Positions 31,286-37,473 of a DNA stretch of 64,000 bases are shown piece after piece (position 1 is the stretch's first letter; the number at the start of each line of letters is the position of its first letter). The notes beneath the pieces were generated by a model. It was not told where the DNA came from. It saw nothing but the letters and a program-made list of their open reading frames with translations, and made no database searches. The DNA comes from Escherichia coli (GTDB lineage Bacteria; Pseudomonadota; Gammaproteobacteria; Enterobacterales; Enterobacteriaceae), in NCBI RefSeq assembly GCF_011045215.1, contig NZ_CP049201.1; one strand, 5' to 3'. Made by a program: the position numbers and the translations under genes.

Positions 31286-33037
31286 ATGATTCAGGACGCT
31301 TTTGTGCGCCAGCGTGCGCGACAACTTTACTGGCAGGGTTATCCGCCCGCAGAAATATCACGTCTGATGGGAATAAACCCGAACACGATTTATGCGTGGA
31401 AAAAACGCGACCAGTGGGATGAAACGCCACCCGTGCAGCGTGTCACGCAGTCCATCGATGCGCGTCTCATCCAGCTTACTGAAAAACAGAATAAAACAGG
31501 CGGTGACTTCAAGGAAATAGACCTGCTGACCCGGCAGCTTAAAAAGCTGCATGATGGCCAGCCGGATGTGACGGCCACAGGAAAGAAAGGCCGGGCGAAA
31601 AAACTCAAAAATCATTTCACGCCGGAACAGATTGCCGCACTGCGGGAAAAAATCATCAGCAGGCTGGAGTGGCATCAGCGGGGCTGGTTTGACTCCCTGA
31701 CCCTTTGCAGGGAAGCCGGGATACGTAACAGGATGATCCTGAAATCCCGACAGATTGGGGCGACCTGGTATTTTGCACAGGAAGCACTGCTGATGGCGCT
31801 GCGTGACGATGTGGCGCAACCTTACCAGCGTAACCAGATTTTTTTGTCTGCGTCGCGTCGTCAGGCGTTCCAGTTTAAAAGCATTATTCAGAAGGCCGCG
31901 GCTGAAGTTGATGTGGAGCTGAAAGGGGGCGATAAAATCATCCTCTCCAACGGCGCAGAGCTGCATTTTCTCGGCACTTCTGCTGCGTCGGCACAGTCCT
32001 ATACGGGCAATTTTTATTTTGATGAATTTTTCTGGGTCAGTCGCTTTGCTGAACTGCGCAAGGTGGCTGGCGCTATGGCAACCCTCAGCGGACTGCGGCG
32101 CACCTACTTCTCCACGCCATCCACCGAAACGCACGAGGCATACGCCTACTGGAACGGCGACCGCTGGAACGAGAAAAAGGCCTCGCATAAACGCCAGCGT
32201 TTTTCTGTGGACTGGAAAACGCTGCATAACGGGCTTATCTGCCCTGACCGGACGTGGCGGCAAATTGTCACGCTGGAAGATGTGGTTAATCACGGCTGGA
32301 AACACACCGATATTGACGAAATCCGTGATGAAAACACCGAAGACGAGTTCCTCAATCTCTATATGTGTGAGTTTGTTCGCGAAGGGGAATCGGCATTTAA
32401 CCTGAATATCCTGATTGGCTGCGGTGTTGACGGATACGACGACTGGAAAGACTGGAAACCTTTTGCTCCCCGCCCGATGGGGAATCGTCCGGTATGGATT
32501 GGGTATGACGCAAACGGCAGCAGTGGCAACGGCGACAGCGGCGCTGTGTCCGTGGTGGTTCCTCCGGCTGTTCCTGGTGGCCGTTTTCGAACGGTGGAGA
32601 CGCGACGCGTTCAGGGGCTGGAGTTTGAAGAACAGGCCAGAGTCATTGAAGAGTTCACGTATCGCTACAACGTGGAACACATCGGCATTGATGTGACGGG
32701 CGGGAACGGGGAGGCTGTTTATCAGATAGTGAAACGGTTTTTCCCTGCTGCTATTCCGTACACCTTCACGCTGTCATCAAAACGGTCGCTGGTACTGAAA
32801 ATGCTGCAAATAATGCGTGCCGGGCGGTGGGAATACGATCGCGCCGAACGCGAGCTGGTCGCGGCCTTTAACGCCGTGCGTAAGGTGAAAACACCGGGCG
32901 GCTTTATCACTTACGAAACGGACCGCGCGAGGGGGATCAGCCACGGCGACCTTGCGTGGGCAACCATGCTTGCTGTCATTAACGAACCGATTGGCGGCGA
33001 AGGAGAAAACGAGCGTTTCACGGTTATGGAGTTCTGA
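31286..33037 (+). CDS. P: terminase ATPase (large) subunit P
   Basis: 583 aa; divergent from O as in P2. Confidence 0.92.
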   Translation: MIQDAFVRQRARQLYWQGYPPAEISRLMGINPNTIYAWKKRDQWDETPPVQRVTQSIDARLIQLTEKQNKTGGDFKEIDLLTRQLKKLHDGQPDVTATGKKGRAKKLKNHFTPEQIAALREKIISRLEWHQRGWFDSLTLCREAGIRNRMILKSRQIGATWYFAQEALLMALRDDVAQPYQRNQIFLSASRRQAFQFKSIIQKAAAEVDVELKGGDKIILSNGAELHFLGTSAASAQSYTGNFYFDEFFWVSRFAELRKVAGAMATLSGLRRTYFSTPSTETHEAYAYWNGDRWNEKKASHKRQRFSVDWKTLHNGLICPDRTWRQIVTLEDVVNHGWKHTDIDEIRDENTEDEFLNLYMCEFVREGESAFNLNILIGCGVDGYDDWKDWKPFAPRPMGNRPVWIGYDANGSSGNGDSGAVSVVVPPAVPGGRFRTVETRRVQGLEFEEQARVIEEFTYRYNVEHIGIDVTGGNGEAVYQIVKRFFPAAIPYTFTLSSKRSLVLKMLQIMRAGRWEYDRAERELVAAFNAVRKVKTPGGFITYETDRARGISHGDLAWATMLAVINEPIGGEGENERFTVMEF

Positions 33038-34083
33038 TGAGCAGAAAAAATAAAAAAGTGCGCATGAGTTCACGCATTGATCTCGCTGATGCGCTCAGGA
33101 AAGAATCATCGCTCAGTGCATTCACATTTGATGGTCCTTATCGCCTGACCGGGCATGACCTGCTGGACAATATGTACTGTGCTGATAACGGGCGGTGGTA
33201 TGAAACCCCGGTGGACTGGTACGGTCTGGCAAGAGCTGCCCGGCAAACGTCCTGGCATCAGTCTGCGCTTTACTTTAAGCGCAATGTATTACTCGGTTGC
33301 TACATCCCGCACCCGCTGCTTTCCCGGCAGGATTTCTCGGCGCTGGCGCTGGACTGGTTTGTGTTCGGTAACGCATTCCTTGAGCTTCGGAGCAATATGC
33401 TCGGCGAACCACTTAAATTACGGCACGCACTGGCGAAATACATGCGACGCGGAAGCGATCTTGAATCATGGTGGTATGTGCAGGATGGCAAGGACGCGTT
33501 TCAGTTTCGCCCTGGCAAAGTGTGCCACCTGATGAATCCGGACATTAACCAGGAAATTTACGGCATGCCGGAATATCTTGGAGCATTACTCTCGGCCAGC
33601 CTGTCTCATTCGGCGGACATGTTCAGAAAACTGTATTACGACAACGGATCCCACGCCGGGTGCATCATCTACATCGGTGCAGCGCAGGTAAACCGCGAAA
33701 GCATGGACTCCCTGAAAGAAACGTTACAGGGTGCGCGTGGTGGTGGTGCGTTTAAAAACGTGCTCATCCACGCGCCCAACGGGGGCAAAGAGGGGGTGCA
33801 AATTTTGCCGTTCCAGCAGATCACCGCAAAGGATGAGTTCATGAATGTTAAGGCGGCATCCCGTGATGATGTGCTGGCTGCGCACCGCGTTCCGCCGCAA
33901 CTGATGGGGGCGATGCCGGGCGAAAAAAGTGCGTTTGGTGATGTGGAGAAGGCCGCGCGGGTTTACGCAATTAACGAGCTGATGCCCGTCATGGAGGCTA
34001 TGAAGCACATCAATGACTGGCTTGGCGAAGAGGTGATCCGCTTTAACCCTTACGCACTGCTGGACACCCAGCCCACATCCTGA
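33037..34083 (+). CDS. Q: portal vertex protein Q
   Basis: 348 aa; translationally coupled to P; P2 gpQ-like. Confidence 0.92.
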   Translation: MSRKNKKVRMSSRIDLADALRKESSLSAFTFDGPYRLTGHDLLDNMYCADNGRWYETPVDWYGLARAARQTSWHQSALYFKRNVLLGCYIPHPLLSRQDFSALALDWFVFGNAFLELRSNMLGEPLKLRHALAKYMRRGSDLESWWYVQDGKDAFQFRPGKVCHLMNPDINQEIYGMPEYLGALLSASLSHSADMFRKLYYDNGSHAGCIIYIGAAQVNRESMDSLKETLQGARGGGAFKNVLIHAPNGGKEGVQILPFQQITAKDEFMNVKAASRDDVLAAHRVPPQLMGAMPGEKSAFGDVEKAARVYAINELMPVMEAMKHINDWLGEEVIRFNPYALLDTQPTS

Positions 34084-34420
34084 CGCGCTTCGCTTGTCTG
34101 CTGCTTCGCCGGGGCATAAAAAATTTATGCCCCGACTCTCCAGCTCTTGTATCAATCAGATAATTTCACGACGCTTTCCTGCTTATTGCCATCATCGACA
34201 GTCAGACTCTTACGCAATCCCACCGCGTTGACTGCATGTTCTCGCCGTCTCAGTGCGATTTTGACGGCCTTACCTTTCACCCCATCAAATCAAAAGCCCT
34301 CACGTCTTTTTCACGCTCAGCGTGAGAAATACAGCCATTCTGTTGTGTCGCTGCGACATCGTTCAGGGGATGCTATTTACCCCCTGAAACGCGGGCTGTT
34401 CCCCCGTCACCTGCGCGCAG

Positions 34421-34534
34421 AAAAAACGCGTTTTTTTGTGCACGCACGGTTCCCTGACGGATCCAGCCGCCACGCGGGTCGGAAGGGCAAAAAGTCGTTC
34501 AAAAAAATTGTGCAAATTTGTGCACTTTTGTGCA
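34421..34534. repeat. palindrome AAAAAACGCGTTTTTT plus four TTGTGCA repeats
   Basis: tttgtgcac (34435), attgtgcaa (34508), tttgtgcac (34517), tttgtgcag (34526), in the non-coding stretch downstream of Q. Confidence 0.4.
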
Positions 34535-34634
34535 GGTAAGCATGCCCATATATTTGACCGTAGCTTGCCTTTGATGTAGTTTATGCGTCACAAAAACCAC
34601 AAAACGTGGTTATGATTTCTATGAGGGGGTTGAT

Positions 34635-34670
34635 ATGAAAAAAATGTATGATGAATTTGATGGTTTCTAA
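34635..34670 (+). other. candidate 11-codon uORF (MKKMYDEFDGF)
   Basis: GAGGGGG 5 nt upstream of the ATG; stop lies 20 nt before a hairpin and T-tract. Confidence 0.25.
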
Positions 34671-34688
34671 GCTACGTTGACCTCTAAT

Positions 34689-34722
34689 GAGGCGGGGATT
34701 TGCTCCCCGCCTTTTTTATGGA
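34689..34722 (+). terminator. hairpin plus T-tract; also contains a P2 cos-like GAGGCGGGGA motif
   Basis: ggcggggatttgctccccgcc followed by TTTTTTAT; GAGGCGGGGA partially matches the remembered P2 cohesive-end sequence. Confidence 0.45.
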
Positions 34723-34731
34723 TGAAATAGG

Positions 34732-35229
34732 ATGAACCCAATAACACTACAAATCATCAGCAATGCTATTGTTCTGCTTGGCGTTTTGGTTGCCATTGGA
34801 ACCATTATCTACAATGTGCGTACCGCAAAAAAAACTCAAACGGCCAACTTTCTTTTTGAGAGTCGGCAAGATATGCAATATATAGAGTCATTGCATACCC
34901 TGAAACAAGTGCATCGTTCAGGCAAATCATTTCGTTCTTATGTTTTTCCTTGTGATGGTTGTACAATAACAGATGAGGAAATGGCCGAGCGTCGAAAATT
35001 TCAATATATTTTAAATTTTTACGAGCGAGTTGCTGTAAGTATTCGTGAAGGTATTTATGATGAAAAAATGATAAAAAGAACATCTTACACAACAGTTGTA
35101 GAGACATATGATATTGCCGAGCCATTAATTAAAGCAATCAGAGAAAGCATTAATTCGGATACTACATATCAAGAATTCGAATGGTTAGTAAGAAGATGGA
35201 AAGCTAATCCTTTACGGAAAAACAAATAA
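34732..35229 (+). CDS. hypothetical protein with single N-terminal TM helix (accessory cassette gene 1)
   Basis: 165 aa; N-terminal hydrophobic helix then a charged soluble domain; no family recognised. Confidence 0.65.
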   Translation: MNPITLQIISNAIVLLGVLVAIGTIIYNVRTAKKTQTANFLFESRQDMQYIESLHTLKQVHRSGKSFRSYVFPCDGCTITDEEMAERRKFQYILNFYERVAVSIREGIYDEKMIKRTSYTTVVETYDIAEPLIKAIRESINSDTTYQEFEWLVRRWKANPLRKNK

Positions 35230-35268
35230 TGTTTTACCCTTTAATTTACAAGTAACACAGGGGGAAGT

Positions 35269-36111
35269 GTGACACAGAATCCGTTTTCATTTTATGACTT
35301 TTTGGGCTATCTAATTCCAGGTGGGTTATTCCTGTTTATCCTTTTTTTGTTTTCTATTGAAATTAACCCTGTTTATATAGAAGGTATTCTTAACCACATC
35401 CTGAAATATAAAGAAATAATAAGTGTATTTATATATGTGGTATTAATTGTTCTATCATATATTTCAGGTCACTTCATATCTATTCTATCATCCTGTTTAA
35501 TTGAAAAATACATGAACAGTAAACTTGGGTATCCTTCAATTTATCTGTTTTCTAAAAGAAGCTCCCTGAAAATAAAACGACATAATACTAAGTTCAGTAT
35601 AGTTCATTTTATCCGTGGAGTTTTTTTACTTCCTGTATCAGCTTTTGATAAAGCAGAACATCATAAAACCACTCTGCATTCTATACTTATTAAAGTCTTT
35701 TGGCCGCAAATACGAGATGGTTATATAAATGTTTTTTCTGTATCTACGCTATATCGACGTAAGGGCTTGAGGGGCGATCTTTTTCGCCTTGCTTATCATT
35801 ATGTGTATGAACATTCTAAAAATCATCAGGTGAAAATGCAAAACTATGTTGCTTTGTATGGTTTTTGTAGAAACATTACATTTGTTTTTCTCGCTTCAGT
35901 CTGGTTGCTTATATGCCTGTTCCCTCTATCCTTTTTAATAGATATAAATATCAGGTTGTTACCTTTTTGTTTTCTTCTCTTGTTTTGTATTGCTGCATCC
36001 CGAGTATTTTATTATGGTTTTGTTAAGTATTATCGCCGCTATTCTCTTGAGGTTTTAATGGCATTTGCGGTACTTCAGCACGATAAAAAAACTTCGGCAA
36101 TTCCATCATGA
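35269..36111 (+). CDS. hypothetical polytopic membrane protein (accessory cassette gene 2)
   Basis: 280 aa, GTG start preceded by AGGGGGAAG; about 5-6 hydrophobic segments; visibly AT-rich; no family recognised. Confidence 0.65.
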   Translation: MTQNPFSFYDFLGYLIPGGLFLFILFLFSIEINPVYIEGILNHILKYKEIISVFIYVVLIVLSYISGHFISILSSCLIEKYMNSKLGYPSIYLFSKRSSLKIKRHNTKFSIVHFIRGVFLLPVSAFDKAEHHKTTLHSILIKVFWPQIRDGYINVFSVSTLYRRKGLRGDLFRLAYHYVYEHSKNHQVKMQNYVALYGFCRNITFVFLASVWLLICLFPLSFLIDINIRLLPFCFLLLFCIAASRVFYYGFVKYYRRYSLEVLMAFAVLQHDKKTSAIPS

Positions 36112-36194
36112 TTTGAAACATTGGCACCCTGTTAGCAAGGGTGCCAGAATGATGTGTTGGTATGTATTTTATTAGTTCAAATACAATTGTCAGA

Positions 36195-36509
36195 TTATTC
36201 TGGGAATAAGGTCTGAATATTCTTTTTTATTTTATAAAAATTGCATTCAACTCCGCTAGGCTGATTAGCCTGGTATGTTTCCTTGATGCTAACGGTATTG
36301 AAGGGGAGGTTGTCCTCTGGCCATTCGGCCATCCAGTAGGCAAATGCTGGGTTGCGCTTTATGAGTGCTAGCCCAGCCAGAAAGGCCGCGCGTTGCGCGC
36401 GGCTGCGTTCGGAGGCTGGCAGGCTATCGAGGTAATTGCACGCCTCCTGTTCACTCTTGACGGCGGCGGGCTTCAGATAGAAACTTATCCGTCTGGTTGG
36501 TGTCGTCAT
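36195..36509 (-). CDS. ParR-like partition adaptor / DNA-binding protein
   Basis: 104 aa; N-terminus (RRISFYLKP..CNYLDSLPASERSRAQRAAFLAGLALIKRNP) resembles plasmid R1 ParR as recalled; directly downstream of the ParM-like gene. Confidence 0.65.
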   Translation of the reverse strand: MTTPTRRISFYLKPAAVKSEQEACNYLDSLPASERSRAQRAAFLAGLALIKRNPAFAYWMAEWPEDNLPFNTVSIKETYQANQPSGVECNFYKIKKNIQTLFPE

Positions 36510-36513
36510 TGGT

Positions 36514-37473
36514 TTACTCCTTGTTCATTGCGTACAGTCCATTAACCAGAGCAAACTGTGGCACCCCGTCCGCGATGAAAGTCGCATTAACTCCGCAGGC
36601 TTCGCGGATAGCGGGTGCCACAATCTCCGCCCCGCCACCGACAACCATCACCCGCCCGTAACCCGAAAAAACCGCCAGCGCGCGGATCACGCGTTGTTTC
36701 AGTGTTTCTTCCTTTTCACGAATAACCGCCATCAGGCTGGCGTAATGCGCGTCATTGTGGATGTGCTGGCGCAGCCAGGCTTCATCATGGCGATGTTCGA
36801 TAATGGTATTGGCGATGTGGTGACTGGTGCGCATACCGTTAGTGGCCATCACCGACAGTACGGCATCGGCCATCAGAGAAACGCCTACGTGTGGATCGCA
36901 AAACACCTGGCTGATACCTGCCAGTTGCCCCTGGACCTTTGCCACATCCAGCGTGGTTCCGCCCAAATCCACAATCAGCAGGGATTCAAACGGACTCATG
37001 TCAGCCAGTGCCTTAAAGCCAGCCGGAATGGATTCAGGCATAACCCGTACGTTACGGATAGTGAATGCTTCGCCGTTCTGGTACTCCACCGGGCGCATGA
37101 CGTTCGCTTTTTTGCGGTTGATGTTGGCCATGTCCGGCTGTGCGTTTGTGTCGAAATATTCGCTCAGTGGCAGGGTGACAACCACATCCACTTCCTGTGG
37201 TGTGATGCCTGATTTGACCAGCGCGTGATGAATGGCAATGACATTCACATCGCTGTACTGGTATTGCGTGTCGGTCGTCTGGACAAAGCGATCGCTGACC
37301 GGATCAAAACCATAGCGCACGCCATCAACCATGTAGTTCGCGGGCTGCGTGCCACCGAACGGCGCAGACCATTCCGACTTGAAGCTGTTCGGGCTGATGG
37401 CGTTGCGGCGTTCGCCGTTCTCAGTCCATGCCAGCTTGATGTTGGTGGAGCCGTCATCGATACAAATTTTCAT
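36514..37473 (-). CDS. ParM/StbA-like actin-type segregation ATPase
   Basis: 319 aa; MKICIDDGSTNIKLAW..ISPNSF..YQYSDVNVIAIHHAL..VMPESIPAG..LIVDLGGTTLD..VMVVGGGAE resembles R1 ParM/StbA along its length. Confidence 0.85.
   Translation of the reverse strand: MKICIDDGSTNIKLAWTENGERRNAISPNSFKSEWSAPFGGTQPANYMVDGVRYGFDPVSDRFVQTTDTQYQYSDVNVIAIHHALVKSGITPQEVDVVVTLPLSEYFDTNAQPDMANINRKKANVMRPVEYQNGEAFTIRNVRVMPESIPAGFKALADMSPFESLLIVDLGGTTLDVAKVQGQLAGISQVFCDPHVGVSLMADAVLSVMATNGMRTSHHIANTIIEHRHDEAWLRQHIHNDAHYASLMAVIREKEETLKQRVIRALAVFSGYGRVMVVGGGAEIVAPAIREACGVNATFIADGVPQFALVNGLYAMNKE

Follow-up and report, generated by a model that had tools for sequence, protein, structure and literature searches.

What does a P2-like prophage keep in the stretch between the end of its portal gene and the first of its accessory genes? 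The DNA analysed here, 64,000 nucleotides long and called the window throughout, is 100% identical to the chromosome of Escherichia coli KSC9 and is by homology a P88-like prophage (Xuanwuvirus, Peduoviridae, P2 family), its nearest phages being P88-like Xuanwuvirus. About 650 bp of non-coding DNA (positions 34084-34731) separate its portal gene Q from a gene of the DUF4760 family. An earlier note had pointed out several palindromes in this region, AAAAAACGCGTTTTTT, four copies of TTGTGCA, a GAGGCGGGGA hairpin with a T-tract and an 11-codon open reading frame (ORF), all of which are indeed present in the sequence. It had proposed that the region holds the cohesive-end site (cos) at this hairpin, which might in addition gate the accessory genes. 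Our comparisons suggest instead that the region consists of two parts placed end to end: phage backbone at 34084-34534, containing the cos core and an array of boxes for the terminase, and a cargo module from 34535 onward, in which a short upstream ORF (uORF) and a terminator would gate DUF4760. As one explanation of the whole region we give this account somewhat better than an even chance. Coordinates of all features are collected in Table 1.

The gene order in the window is P, Q, the non-coding region, DUF4760, a gene for a 280-aa protein, and then, on the minus strand, StbB/ParM and a replication gene. This is the P2 map in reverse, and cos is therefore expected downstream of Q. We aligned the stretch behind Q from nine elements, namely the window, P2, 186, the satellite P4, the Salmonella phage SEN5, the Klebsiella phages Kp4877-2 and Kp4861-1, the Enterobacter phage phiT5282H, and P88_4B11. 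In the alignment GGGCTGTTCCCCCGTCACC followed by TGCGCGCAG falls opposite GTGCTTTCCCCGCCTCGCC of P2. The first of these is a GC-rich 19-mer, unique within the window and homologous to known cohesive ends (GGCGAGGCGGGGAAAGCAC and relatives), with 13 of 19 positions identical to the P2 cohesive end in an ungapped comparison; its place downstream of Q matches the order in P2, 186 and SEN5. Seven intermediates, Kp4877-2, SEN5, Kp4861-1, phiT5282H and the loci L027, L028 and L034, bridge the core of the window to that of P2. A plain P2-type cos of the form CT[CT]G[TC]TCCCCCGCCTCGCC is found in SEN5, Kp4877-2, L027 and L028, and at the same place Kp4861-1, phiT5282H and the window have GG(G)CT[GT][TG][TC]CCCCCGTCACC, followed by the same TGCGCGCAG. 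The database records of SEN5, P2 and 186 open exactly at the cos-homologous sequence. Because of this homology to the P2 cohesive end via the intermediates, we assign 34393-34411 as the cos core, at which the terminase would be predicted to make its staggered nicks.

The surroundings of the core resemble cos as well. For the P2 family and P4, cohesive ends of 19 nt and a cos core of 55 bp have been described (Ziermann & Calendar 1990, as cited in PMC9122126 and PMC5694545). The window shares with these sites the position after the portal gene, the C-run and GC-rich 19-mer homologous to GTGCTTTCCCCGCCTCGCC, a GCGCGC-type flank, a palindrome with a T-run and a first (G/A)TGCA box at +27 from the cos edge, and, further on, three more boxes at +97 to +120. 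It differs in the core itself, at 6 of 19 positions and by 2 nt less between the C-run and TCRCC, and in the palindrome, which is AT-rich (AAAAAACGCGTTTTTT) instead of GC-rich. The TGCGCGC flank is nearly invariant. The palindrome at 34412-34446 is the positional counterpart of the cos-side hairpin CGCCCGC..GCGGGCG with TTTT in P2, P4 and 186, and its AAAAAACGCGTTTTTT sequence is specific to P88-like phages. This palindrome had itself been considered as cos, a reading suggested by the likeness of its TGCGCGC..TGACGG to P2 nucleotides 20-35; it was rejected because the intermediates showed the other orientation and GCGCGC motifs flank cos on both sides.

Some observations weigh against this placement. 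As the core is 2 nt shorter between C-run and TCRCC than the P2 type, the exact nick positions and the length of the overhang are uncertain. A literature search for an experimentally determined cos or for virion ends of P88-like phages found none. Furthermore, the P88_4B11 record (LR595891) is linearised at the equivalent of 34489/34490, away from the predicted cos, and the P2-like record of the same study does break inside cos. That record, P2_4C9 (LR595883), ends with ...GGCGAGGCG and starts with TGCGCGC, so that 10 nt in the middle of the P2 cohesive end are missing from it. The physical ends could thus lie in the GC-rich spacer that separates the boxes, near 34489/34490: LR595891 both starts and ends there, and the segment CGCCGCCAC..GGAAGGG shows partial conservation from Xuanwuvirus to phiT5282H. 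We consider this improbable: compared with the prophage, the two ends of the P88_4B11 record abut without gap or overlap, as expected of a rotated circular assembly, its authors chose nucleotide 1 relative to reference genomes, and the spacer around 34489 is not conserved in Kp4861-1 or in the P2-type phages that share the architecture. A scan of viral contigs (IMG/VR) for contigs that end at cos gave uninformative ends, most matches being prophage-derived.

The four TTGTGCA copies noticed earlier turned out to be part of the same arrangement. They start at 34436, 34508, 34518 and 34528, all on the plus strand, with a spacing of exactly 10 bp among the last three. Over its whole length the window is not enriched for this heptamer (12 copies versus about 16 expected), and four copies within 99 bp on one strand have a probability of about 1e-5 to 1e-6 in a simple Poisson estimate. 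Relative to the cos edge, (G/A)TGC(A/G) boxes start at +25/27, +97/99, +107/109 and +117-120 in all nine elements compared, P2, 186 and P4 among them, and the same offsets are found in P2-like prophages of Xenorhabdus, Pectobacterium and Pantoea, and also in loci L027, L028 and L034. Our IMG/VR scan for a GGTGACGGGGG-type core yielded 71 distinct cos regions, of which 80, 69, 62 and 62% have a box at +27, +99, +109 and +119, respectively, versus 2.6% per position elsewhere. The spacing appears to be kept with some precision. The GTCACC-type core is 2 nt shorter than the GCCTCGCC type, and the segment from TGCGCGCAG to the first box is 2 nt longer (window 34393-34442 versus SEN5, Kp4877-2 and P2), so that the shorter core is offset by the longer segment. 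The 2-nt offset of the boxes in the GTCACC group thus equals the shortening of its core, and the distance from the C-run is therefore constant for all four boxes, which suggests a spacing constraint in the packaging signal.

P4 is informative with regard to the role of the boxes, since it shares only the packaging signal with P2 (PMC9122126). This satellite has all four of them, the first inside the stretch that is nearly identical in P2 and P4 and the three distal ones outside it. Because P4 keeps them, we regard the boxes as part of what the terminase recognises, probably as a recognition array of its small subunit. An analogous layout is known from cosB of phage lambda, in which the R sites bound by gpNu1 are 16-bp repeats arranged as R3...R2, R1 with a bend by IHF in between. 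The likeness is one of layout only: to one side of a nicking site lie a proximal repeat and, about 60-70 bp from it, several distal ones; sequence similarity to lambda is absent from the window, and the repeats measure 5-7 bp versus 16 bp. By this analogy the arrangement of the boxes would suit a small terminase subunit (P2-type gpM) on bent DNA.

Phased 10-bp iterons are also typical of centromeres, and genes for ParM and StbB lie 1.7 kb from the repeats, so that a parC-like centromere of a ParM/StbB system could be envisaged; an operator of the cargo promoter, 20-45 bp downstream of the boxes, would be a further option. Both seem very unlikely to us. The same boxes occur at the same offsets in P2, 186, P4 and phiT5282H without ParM/ParR at the locus (P2, 186 and P4 are not known to have a ParMR system), and in phiT5282H a 2.2-kb gene follows them directly. 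Iterons of a ParMRC centromere would be specific to carriers of the partition genes, which these boxes are not, and they stay constant while cargo and cargo promoter vary. We therefore retain the assignment of the TTGTGCA repeats to the packaging signal.

The last of these boxes is also the last element of the backbone. Position-wise conservation among 53 sequences collapses right after the last GTGCA (+123, i.e. 34534), and the homology of most relatives stops at 34534-34541. Past this junction, 61 distinct sequences were found among 75 viral loci with this type of cos, and only 3 of the 75 have the uORF. The cos region is present in 1124 of 5426 complete E. coli genomes, and the hairpin with its cassette in 288. 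By these comparisons the DNA from 34535 onward is variable, exchangeable cargo. In P2-like phages, Rousset et al. 2022 (PMC9122126) described a cos-proximal hotspot of anti-phage systems at this place between cos/Q and the replication gene, and the entries seen in the supplementary table of that study include this same gene arrangement; these entries list protein families only, and the uORF and the terminator are not shown in them. The same genome (NZ_CP018323) appears three more times in the hotspot tables of the supplement (PMC9122126), with AAA_15 and UvrD helicase, with UvrD_C_2/AAA_19 and DUF2290, and with RVT_1 and a hypothetical protein, and KSC9 therefore carries several P2/P4-type elements. 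For a defence function of DUF4760, PADLOC had no matching model, and the literature searched contained no report of a defence test of this cassette.

What, then, does the cargo module consist of? Directly before the DUF4760 gene lies the unit of uORF and hairpin that the earlier note had seen, and it proved to be real and conserved. We surveyed a first set of 19 DUF4760 loci and four far more distant ones, from AT-rich and GC-rich organisms. A uORF ending in [DE][DE][FY][DE][GW][FL] and a stop codon, or in a looser variant in the distant members, was found in 19 of 19 and, with the distant loci (MVNLILDEFDGF, MREVIDGL, ...SDGYDGLI and ...RDDYNGF), in 23 of 23 distinct loci. What is conserved is the amino acid sequence at the C-terminus, independently of the nucleotides, as would be expected of an arrest peptide. 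Within the six core codons all six third positions vary, as compared to 3 of 12 first and second positions, and pairwise codon differences amount to 401 synonymous versus 132 non-synonymous. Nucleotide identity is 0.81 in the core versus 0.30-0.32 in the flanks. Every uORF shown with its upstream sequence has a recognisable and mostly strong Shine-Dalgarno (SD) sequence, and the stop codon is TAA, TAG or TGA. From the codon-position pattern and the identity of the core it follows that the uORF is translated and its peptide under selection. The uORF matched no Rfam family, full-text literature searches for DEFDGF returned nothing relevant, and as far as we found in the literature searched, a conserved uORF before DUF4760 genes has not been described. 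In one of the loci, of Pantoea wallisii (L024), the DUF4760 gene is frameshifted and the uORF and terminator are intact.

The second conserved element of the unit is the hairpin. With its GC-rich stem, short loop and a T/U-tract directly 3′ it has the features of an intrinsic (Rho-independent) terminator, and it folds at -19.4 kcal/mol (z-score -3.66), which none of 200 shuffled sequences equalled. A GGCGGG...CCCGCC hairpin with T5-8 stands just upstream of DUF4760 in about 17 of the 19 loci of the first set. RNAalifold on 13 sequences recovered the terminator helix only; in 3 of these 13, GC-to-AU changes affect both sides of the stem, and the loops are unrelated, a modest signal since most pairs never vary. 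Citrobacter phage phiSM, for instance, has the stem GAGGCGGAGA/TCTCCGCCT, changed on both sides and with an unrelated loop. The earlier note had taken the GAGGCGGGGA hairpin for cos, or a part of it, on account of its likeness to the P2 cohesive end, and there is indeed an exact 10-nt match to positions 4-13 of that end, for which the chance is about 0.01 in 648 bp under a uniform model. Over the full length, however, only 10 of 19 positions agree, and nowhere in the window does the P2 19-mer match with three or fewer mismatches. The comparison with P2 and 186 that had been proposed does place cos in this region, but about 280 bp upstream of the flagged motif, at 34393-34411, which is the better homologue by both position and sequence. 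The hairpin, moreover, belongs to cargo that most phages sharing this terminase and cos region lack (288 E. coli genomes have the hairpin versus 1124 with the cos region), its stem in phiSM shows compensating change around a different loop, and it accompanies DUF4760 beside lambdoid tail genes, integrases and an AlpA gene, which are not P2-like settings. The likeness to the P2 cohesive end is therefore a property of the terminator stem. We give the hairpin practically no chance of being a cos or terminase site, and by its sequence features it is a terminator in the cargo. The layout described earlier holds, with corrected distances: 18 nt instead of 20 from the ORF to the hairpin, and 14 nt instead of 10 from there to the gene.

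How might these elements act together? A predicted sigma-70-type promoter upstream of the uORF, read from the sequence and missed by a stricter promoter scan, has the pattern TTGAC[CTA]-17-TA[GA]NTT, which is kept in phiSM, L027, L028 and L034 despite differing surroundings. It would drive a short transcript carrying the strongly translated 11-codon uORF, and termination 18 nt past the uORF stop would leave DUF4760 to be transcribed by read-through only. The failure rate of the terminator would then be set by the ribosome at the end of the uORF, which adjoins the hairpin, and the conserved nascent peptide would determine how long that ribosome dwells at the stop codon. In the experiments of Li et al., tR2 hardly terminated at all when a stop codon lay 8-9 bp upstream and terminated maximally once the distance exceeded 30 bp, and a stop at 17-18 bp gave termination efficiencies from 0.12 to 0.8 (PMC4824070). 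The single terminator of the window, 18 nt behind the leader ORF, lies in this sensitive range of about 8-30 bp, which speaks for compatibility only; the distance is 14-18 nt in 11 of 17 loci, with unrelated spacer sequences. Because the stop codon falls where a nearby ribosome suppresses a terminator, ribosome-dependent gating is favoured, and ribosome-dependent attenuation appears to be the most likely mechanism by which DUF4760 is controlled. The attenuation proposed in the earlier note thus remains plausible and is strengthened by the comparative data.

Other findings fit this mechanism less well. Spacers of 7, 8, 21-27 and 37 nt also occur, and two metagenome contigs (L160 and L161) have the uORF without a terminator. 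Neither an antiterminator nor any other conserved alternative structure was found in minimum free energy folds or with RNAalifold, the only competitor of the terminator arms being a 4-bp CCUC/GAGG stem, and in the close clade alone is there a strong duplex between the SD and its complement CCTCT in the spacer (mean z-score over 17 loci -0.65). Sequestration of the SD by this anti-SD was rejected as a general feature, being clade-restricted. With no antiterminator the element is not a trp-type attenuator, and the run of regulatory codons known from trp and his leaders is likewise absent: MKKMYDEFDGF contains two Phe and one Tyr, and its conserved part is a mixed motif. The small stem-loop near the 5′ end of the predicted transcript is not conserved in phiSM.

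Known parallels to such gating are pyrBI and TnaC. In pyrBI, a nearby ribosome suppresses an intrinsic terminator (Roland et al., as discussed in PMC4824070), and like pyrBI the window has a translated leader ORF before a single intrinsic terminator and no antiterminator hairpin. In pyrBI, however, the peptide sequence is irrelevant and the signal is UTP-sensitive pausing, whereas in the family studied here the last six residues are strongly conserved and, unlike in pyrBI, some members lack the terminator. With TnaC the uORF shares its shortness, the conserved last residues before the stop codon and the variable N-terminus, and by this analogy the position of the motif suggests an action at the termination step. 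TnaC differs in that it relies on Rho-dependent termination, senses tryptophan and needs a UGA stop, as opposed to the intrinsic terminator and the TAA, TAG and TGA stops found here.

The conservation of the peptide can also be read in another way, namely that the product of the uORF is a functional micropeptide whose target in trans would be DUF4760 or a component of the cell or the phage; it could, for instance, be a very labile antitoxin-like partner. The terminator would then merely fix a high ratio of peptide to DUF4760, as in type III toxin-antitoxin loci, which likewise have a small upstream element and an intrinsic terminator before a gene expressed by read-through; in those loci the antitoxin consists of tandem RNA repeats, whereas the element in the window is a translated peptide, and a family of tandem or direct repeats was not found between its promoter and terminator. 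We think such a role possible, though well short of an even chance. The distant DUF4760 loci L160 and L161 bear on this question. They have a 19-codon uORF ending in DDYNGF with its stop 6 nt before the DUF4760 ATG, an operon-like arrangement that looks like translational coupling. As the terminator is absent from these loci, the peptide motif is the sole feature constant in all of them, which favours a role of the peptide itself. The motif, moreover, sits at the extreme C-terminus in all loci but L021 (four residues more) and L159 (one residue more), the SD is recognisable and mostly strong throughout, and divergent DUF4760 subfamilies have correspondingly different peptides (DEFEGF, DEYEGL, EVIDGL and DDYNGF).

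Against an action in trans speaks, first, general experience: leader peptides as short as 8-12 residues commonly act in cis in bacteria, but to our knowledge hardly any unprocessed cytosolic peptide of that length is known to act in trans. AlphaFold2 (AF2) models of DUF4760 fused by a linker to its cognate peptide left the peptide undocked with a predicted local distance difference test (pLDDT) score of 34-37, a weak argument given that a monomer and a paired alignment of 17 sequences were used. In the Franconibacter locus L021, furthermore, the stop codon has been lost by mutation from TAA to TAC, which extends the peptide by four residues and brings its end to 7-8 nt from the hairpin. In its more specific form the proposal is more tentative still: the product of 8-19 residues, ending in D-E-F-D-G-F-COOH, might be an extremely labile inhibitor of the DUF4760 membrane protein in an abortive-infection or toxin-antitoxin pair, or might mimic acidic, Phe-terminated tails such as the C-terminus of the single-stranded DNA-binding protein SSB, with the terminator fixing a large excess of peptide. 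If true, such an inhibitor pair would have the smallest proteinaceous antitoxin known. We would class the conserved uORF as a variant of leader-peptide control, while giving a functional micropeptide a real chance.

Genes for DUF4760 proteins at 47-88% identity were found in many Enterobacterales by protein search and genome scan, that of phiSM being 78% identical, and they are located after the portal gene in P2-like prophages, near lambdoid tail genes, integrases, an AlpA gene or a cI-like repressor. The start of the gene, a T-run followed by ATGGA(T/A)GAA and the ATG, is conserved in the close clade. An AF2 model of the protein (pLDDT 92.5) shows an N-terminal transmembrane helix and a helical domain, for which a fold search against PDB gave no significant match (best E-value 0.23). 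The top matches were the helical EP domains of the plant immune proteins EDS1, PAD4 and SAG101 (TM-score 0.54-0.58, Foldseek probability up to 0.99, E-values 0.2-3); being not significant, they may reflect a generic helical bundle. A full-text literature search for DUF4760 led to one paper, which deals with disinfectant resistance and genomic islands of Serratia, and nothing was found that combines DUF4760 with phage and defence. Because DUF4760 sits in cargo slots of prophages, a role in lysogenic conversion or phage exclusion is suggested.

Table 1. Features of the portal-to-cargo region and neighbouring genes, with positions in the window.
Feature	Position	Strand	Remarks
Large terminase gene	31286-33037	+	
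Portal gene Q	33037-34083	+	
Perfect 11-bp hairpin	34110-34134	+	no T-run; 27 nt after Q stop codon
Smaller palindromes	34304-34332 and 34362-34388		
Predicted cos core (cosN, cohesive-end homologue)	34393-34411	-	by homology; GGGCTGTTCCCCCGTCACC, reads GGTGACGGGGGAACAGCCC on the minus strand
Conserved flank TGCGCGCAG	34412-34420		
Imperfect palindrome	34412-34446		arms 34412-34426 and 34432-34446; includes AAAAAACGCGTTTTTT (34421-34436)
Proximal (G/A)TGCA box, TTGTGCA	34436-34442	+	GTGCA at +27 from cos edge
Three distal TTGTGCA boxes	34508-34534	+	GTGCA at +99, +109, +119; last backbone element
Backbone-to-cargo junction	34535-34541		cos-proximal hotspot of P2-like phages
Predicted sigma-70-type promoter	34554-34582	+	TTGACC, 17 nt, TAGTTT
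Small 5′-proximal stem-loop of predicted transcript	34595-34611	+	-7.0 kcal/mol, z-score -3.3
SD GAGGGGG and 11-codon uORF	34623-34670	+	SD 34623-34629, ATG 34635, TAA 34668-34670; MKKMYDEFDGF
18-nt spacer	34671-34688	+	contains CCTCT (34681-34685), complementary to uORF SD
Predicted intrinsic terminator	34689-34717	+	10-bp stem GAGGCGGGGA/TCCCCGCCTT (arms 34689-34698 and 34704-34713, 7 GC pairs), 5-nt loop TTTGC, T6 at 34712-34717
Weak SD GGATGA and DUF4760 gene	34720-35229	+	SD 34720-34725, ATG 34732, 14 nt past T-tract
DUF4760 gene	34732-35229	+	Pfam PF15956, E = 1e-34
Gene for 280-aa multi-pass membrane protein	35269-36111	+	
ParM and StbB (ParR-like) plasmid-segregation genes	36195-37473	-	adjoin replication gene

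In the remaining part of the backbone, between Q and the cos core, about 60 nt directly after Q are almost invariant among 42 distinct sequences, and the perfect hairpin after the Q stop codon (-17.6 kcal/mol, z-score -4.27) occupies the relative place of the annotated tQ/tW in P2 and 186. RAST and PGAP annotations of several relatives include a hypothetical protein of 42 aa, corresponding to an ORF at 34152-34280 on the minus strand. This ORF probably does not represent a gene, since its variable sites show no bias among codon positions in the same 42 sequences (14/17/13). In phage vB_EcoM-569R5 (L004:2401-2925) and E. coli AZ146 (L013:605-1168) the portal stop codon and the conserved hairpin are separated by an extra gene of 525-564 nt on the opposite strand, inserted precisely at this point, which reveals a second, small slot for cargo on the side of cos that faces Q. 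An Rfam scan of 33000-37000 at E <= 1, on which the uORF result given above is also based, returned sub-threshold matches only, to gyrA RNA, SorX and caiA. The gyrA RNA match lies on the tQ-like hairpin (34089-34142, minus strand; 22 bits versus a gathering score of 45) and that of SorX on the terminator (34665-34717, plus strand; 19 bits versus 46.6), and both were treated as chance fits to simple stem-loops.

On the other side of DUF4760, the 280-aa protein has a weak PADLOC match to Csx27 (E = 6e-6). We considered it as an obligatory partner of DUF4760 and rejected this, since its gene was missing from all ten other DUF4760 loci tested; its presence appears to be a peculiarity of the E. coli cassette. 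Pfeifer et al. (PMC7969092) have marked P88 itself as possibly being a phage-plasmid.

For the P2 family these results mean that homology now locates the cos core in P88-like prophages, a very common group, and that the array of four boxes at fixed distances from cos, common to P2, 186, many Peduoviridae and P4, would define what a P2-type terminase recognises and likewise what P4 must copy. The defence hotspot of these phages begins exactly one base past the last box. The micro-ORF, in turn, accompanies a large uncharacterised family, as DUF4760 comprises more than 2500 clusters at 50% identity and occurs as prophage cargo in many bacteria. Whether as a leader-peptide sensor or as an unusually small functional peptide, it may thus provide a handle on how such cargo genes are silenced and switched on.

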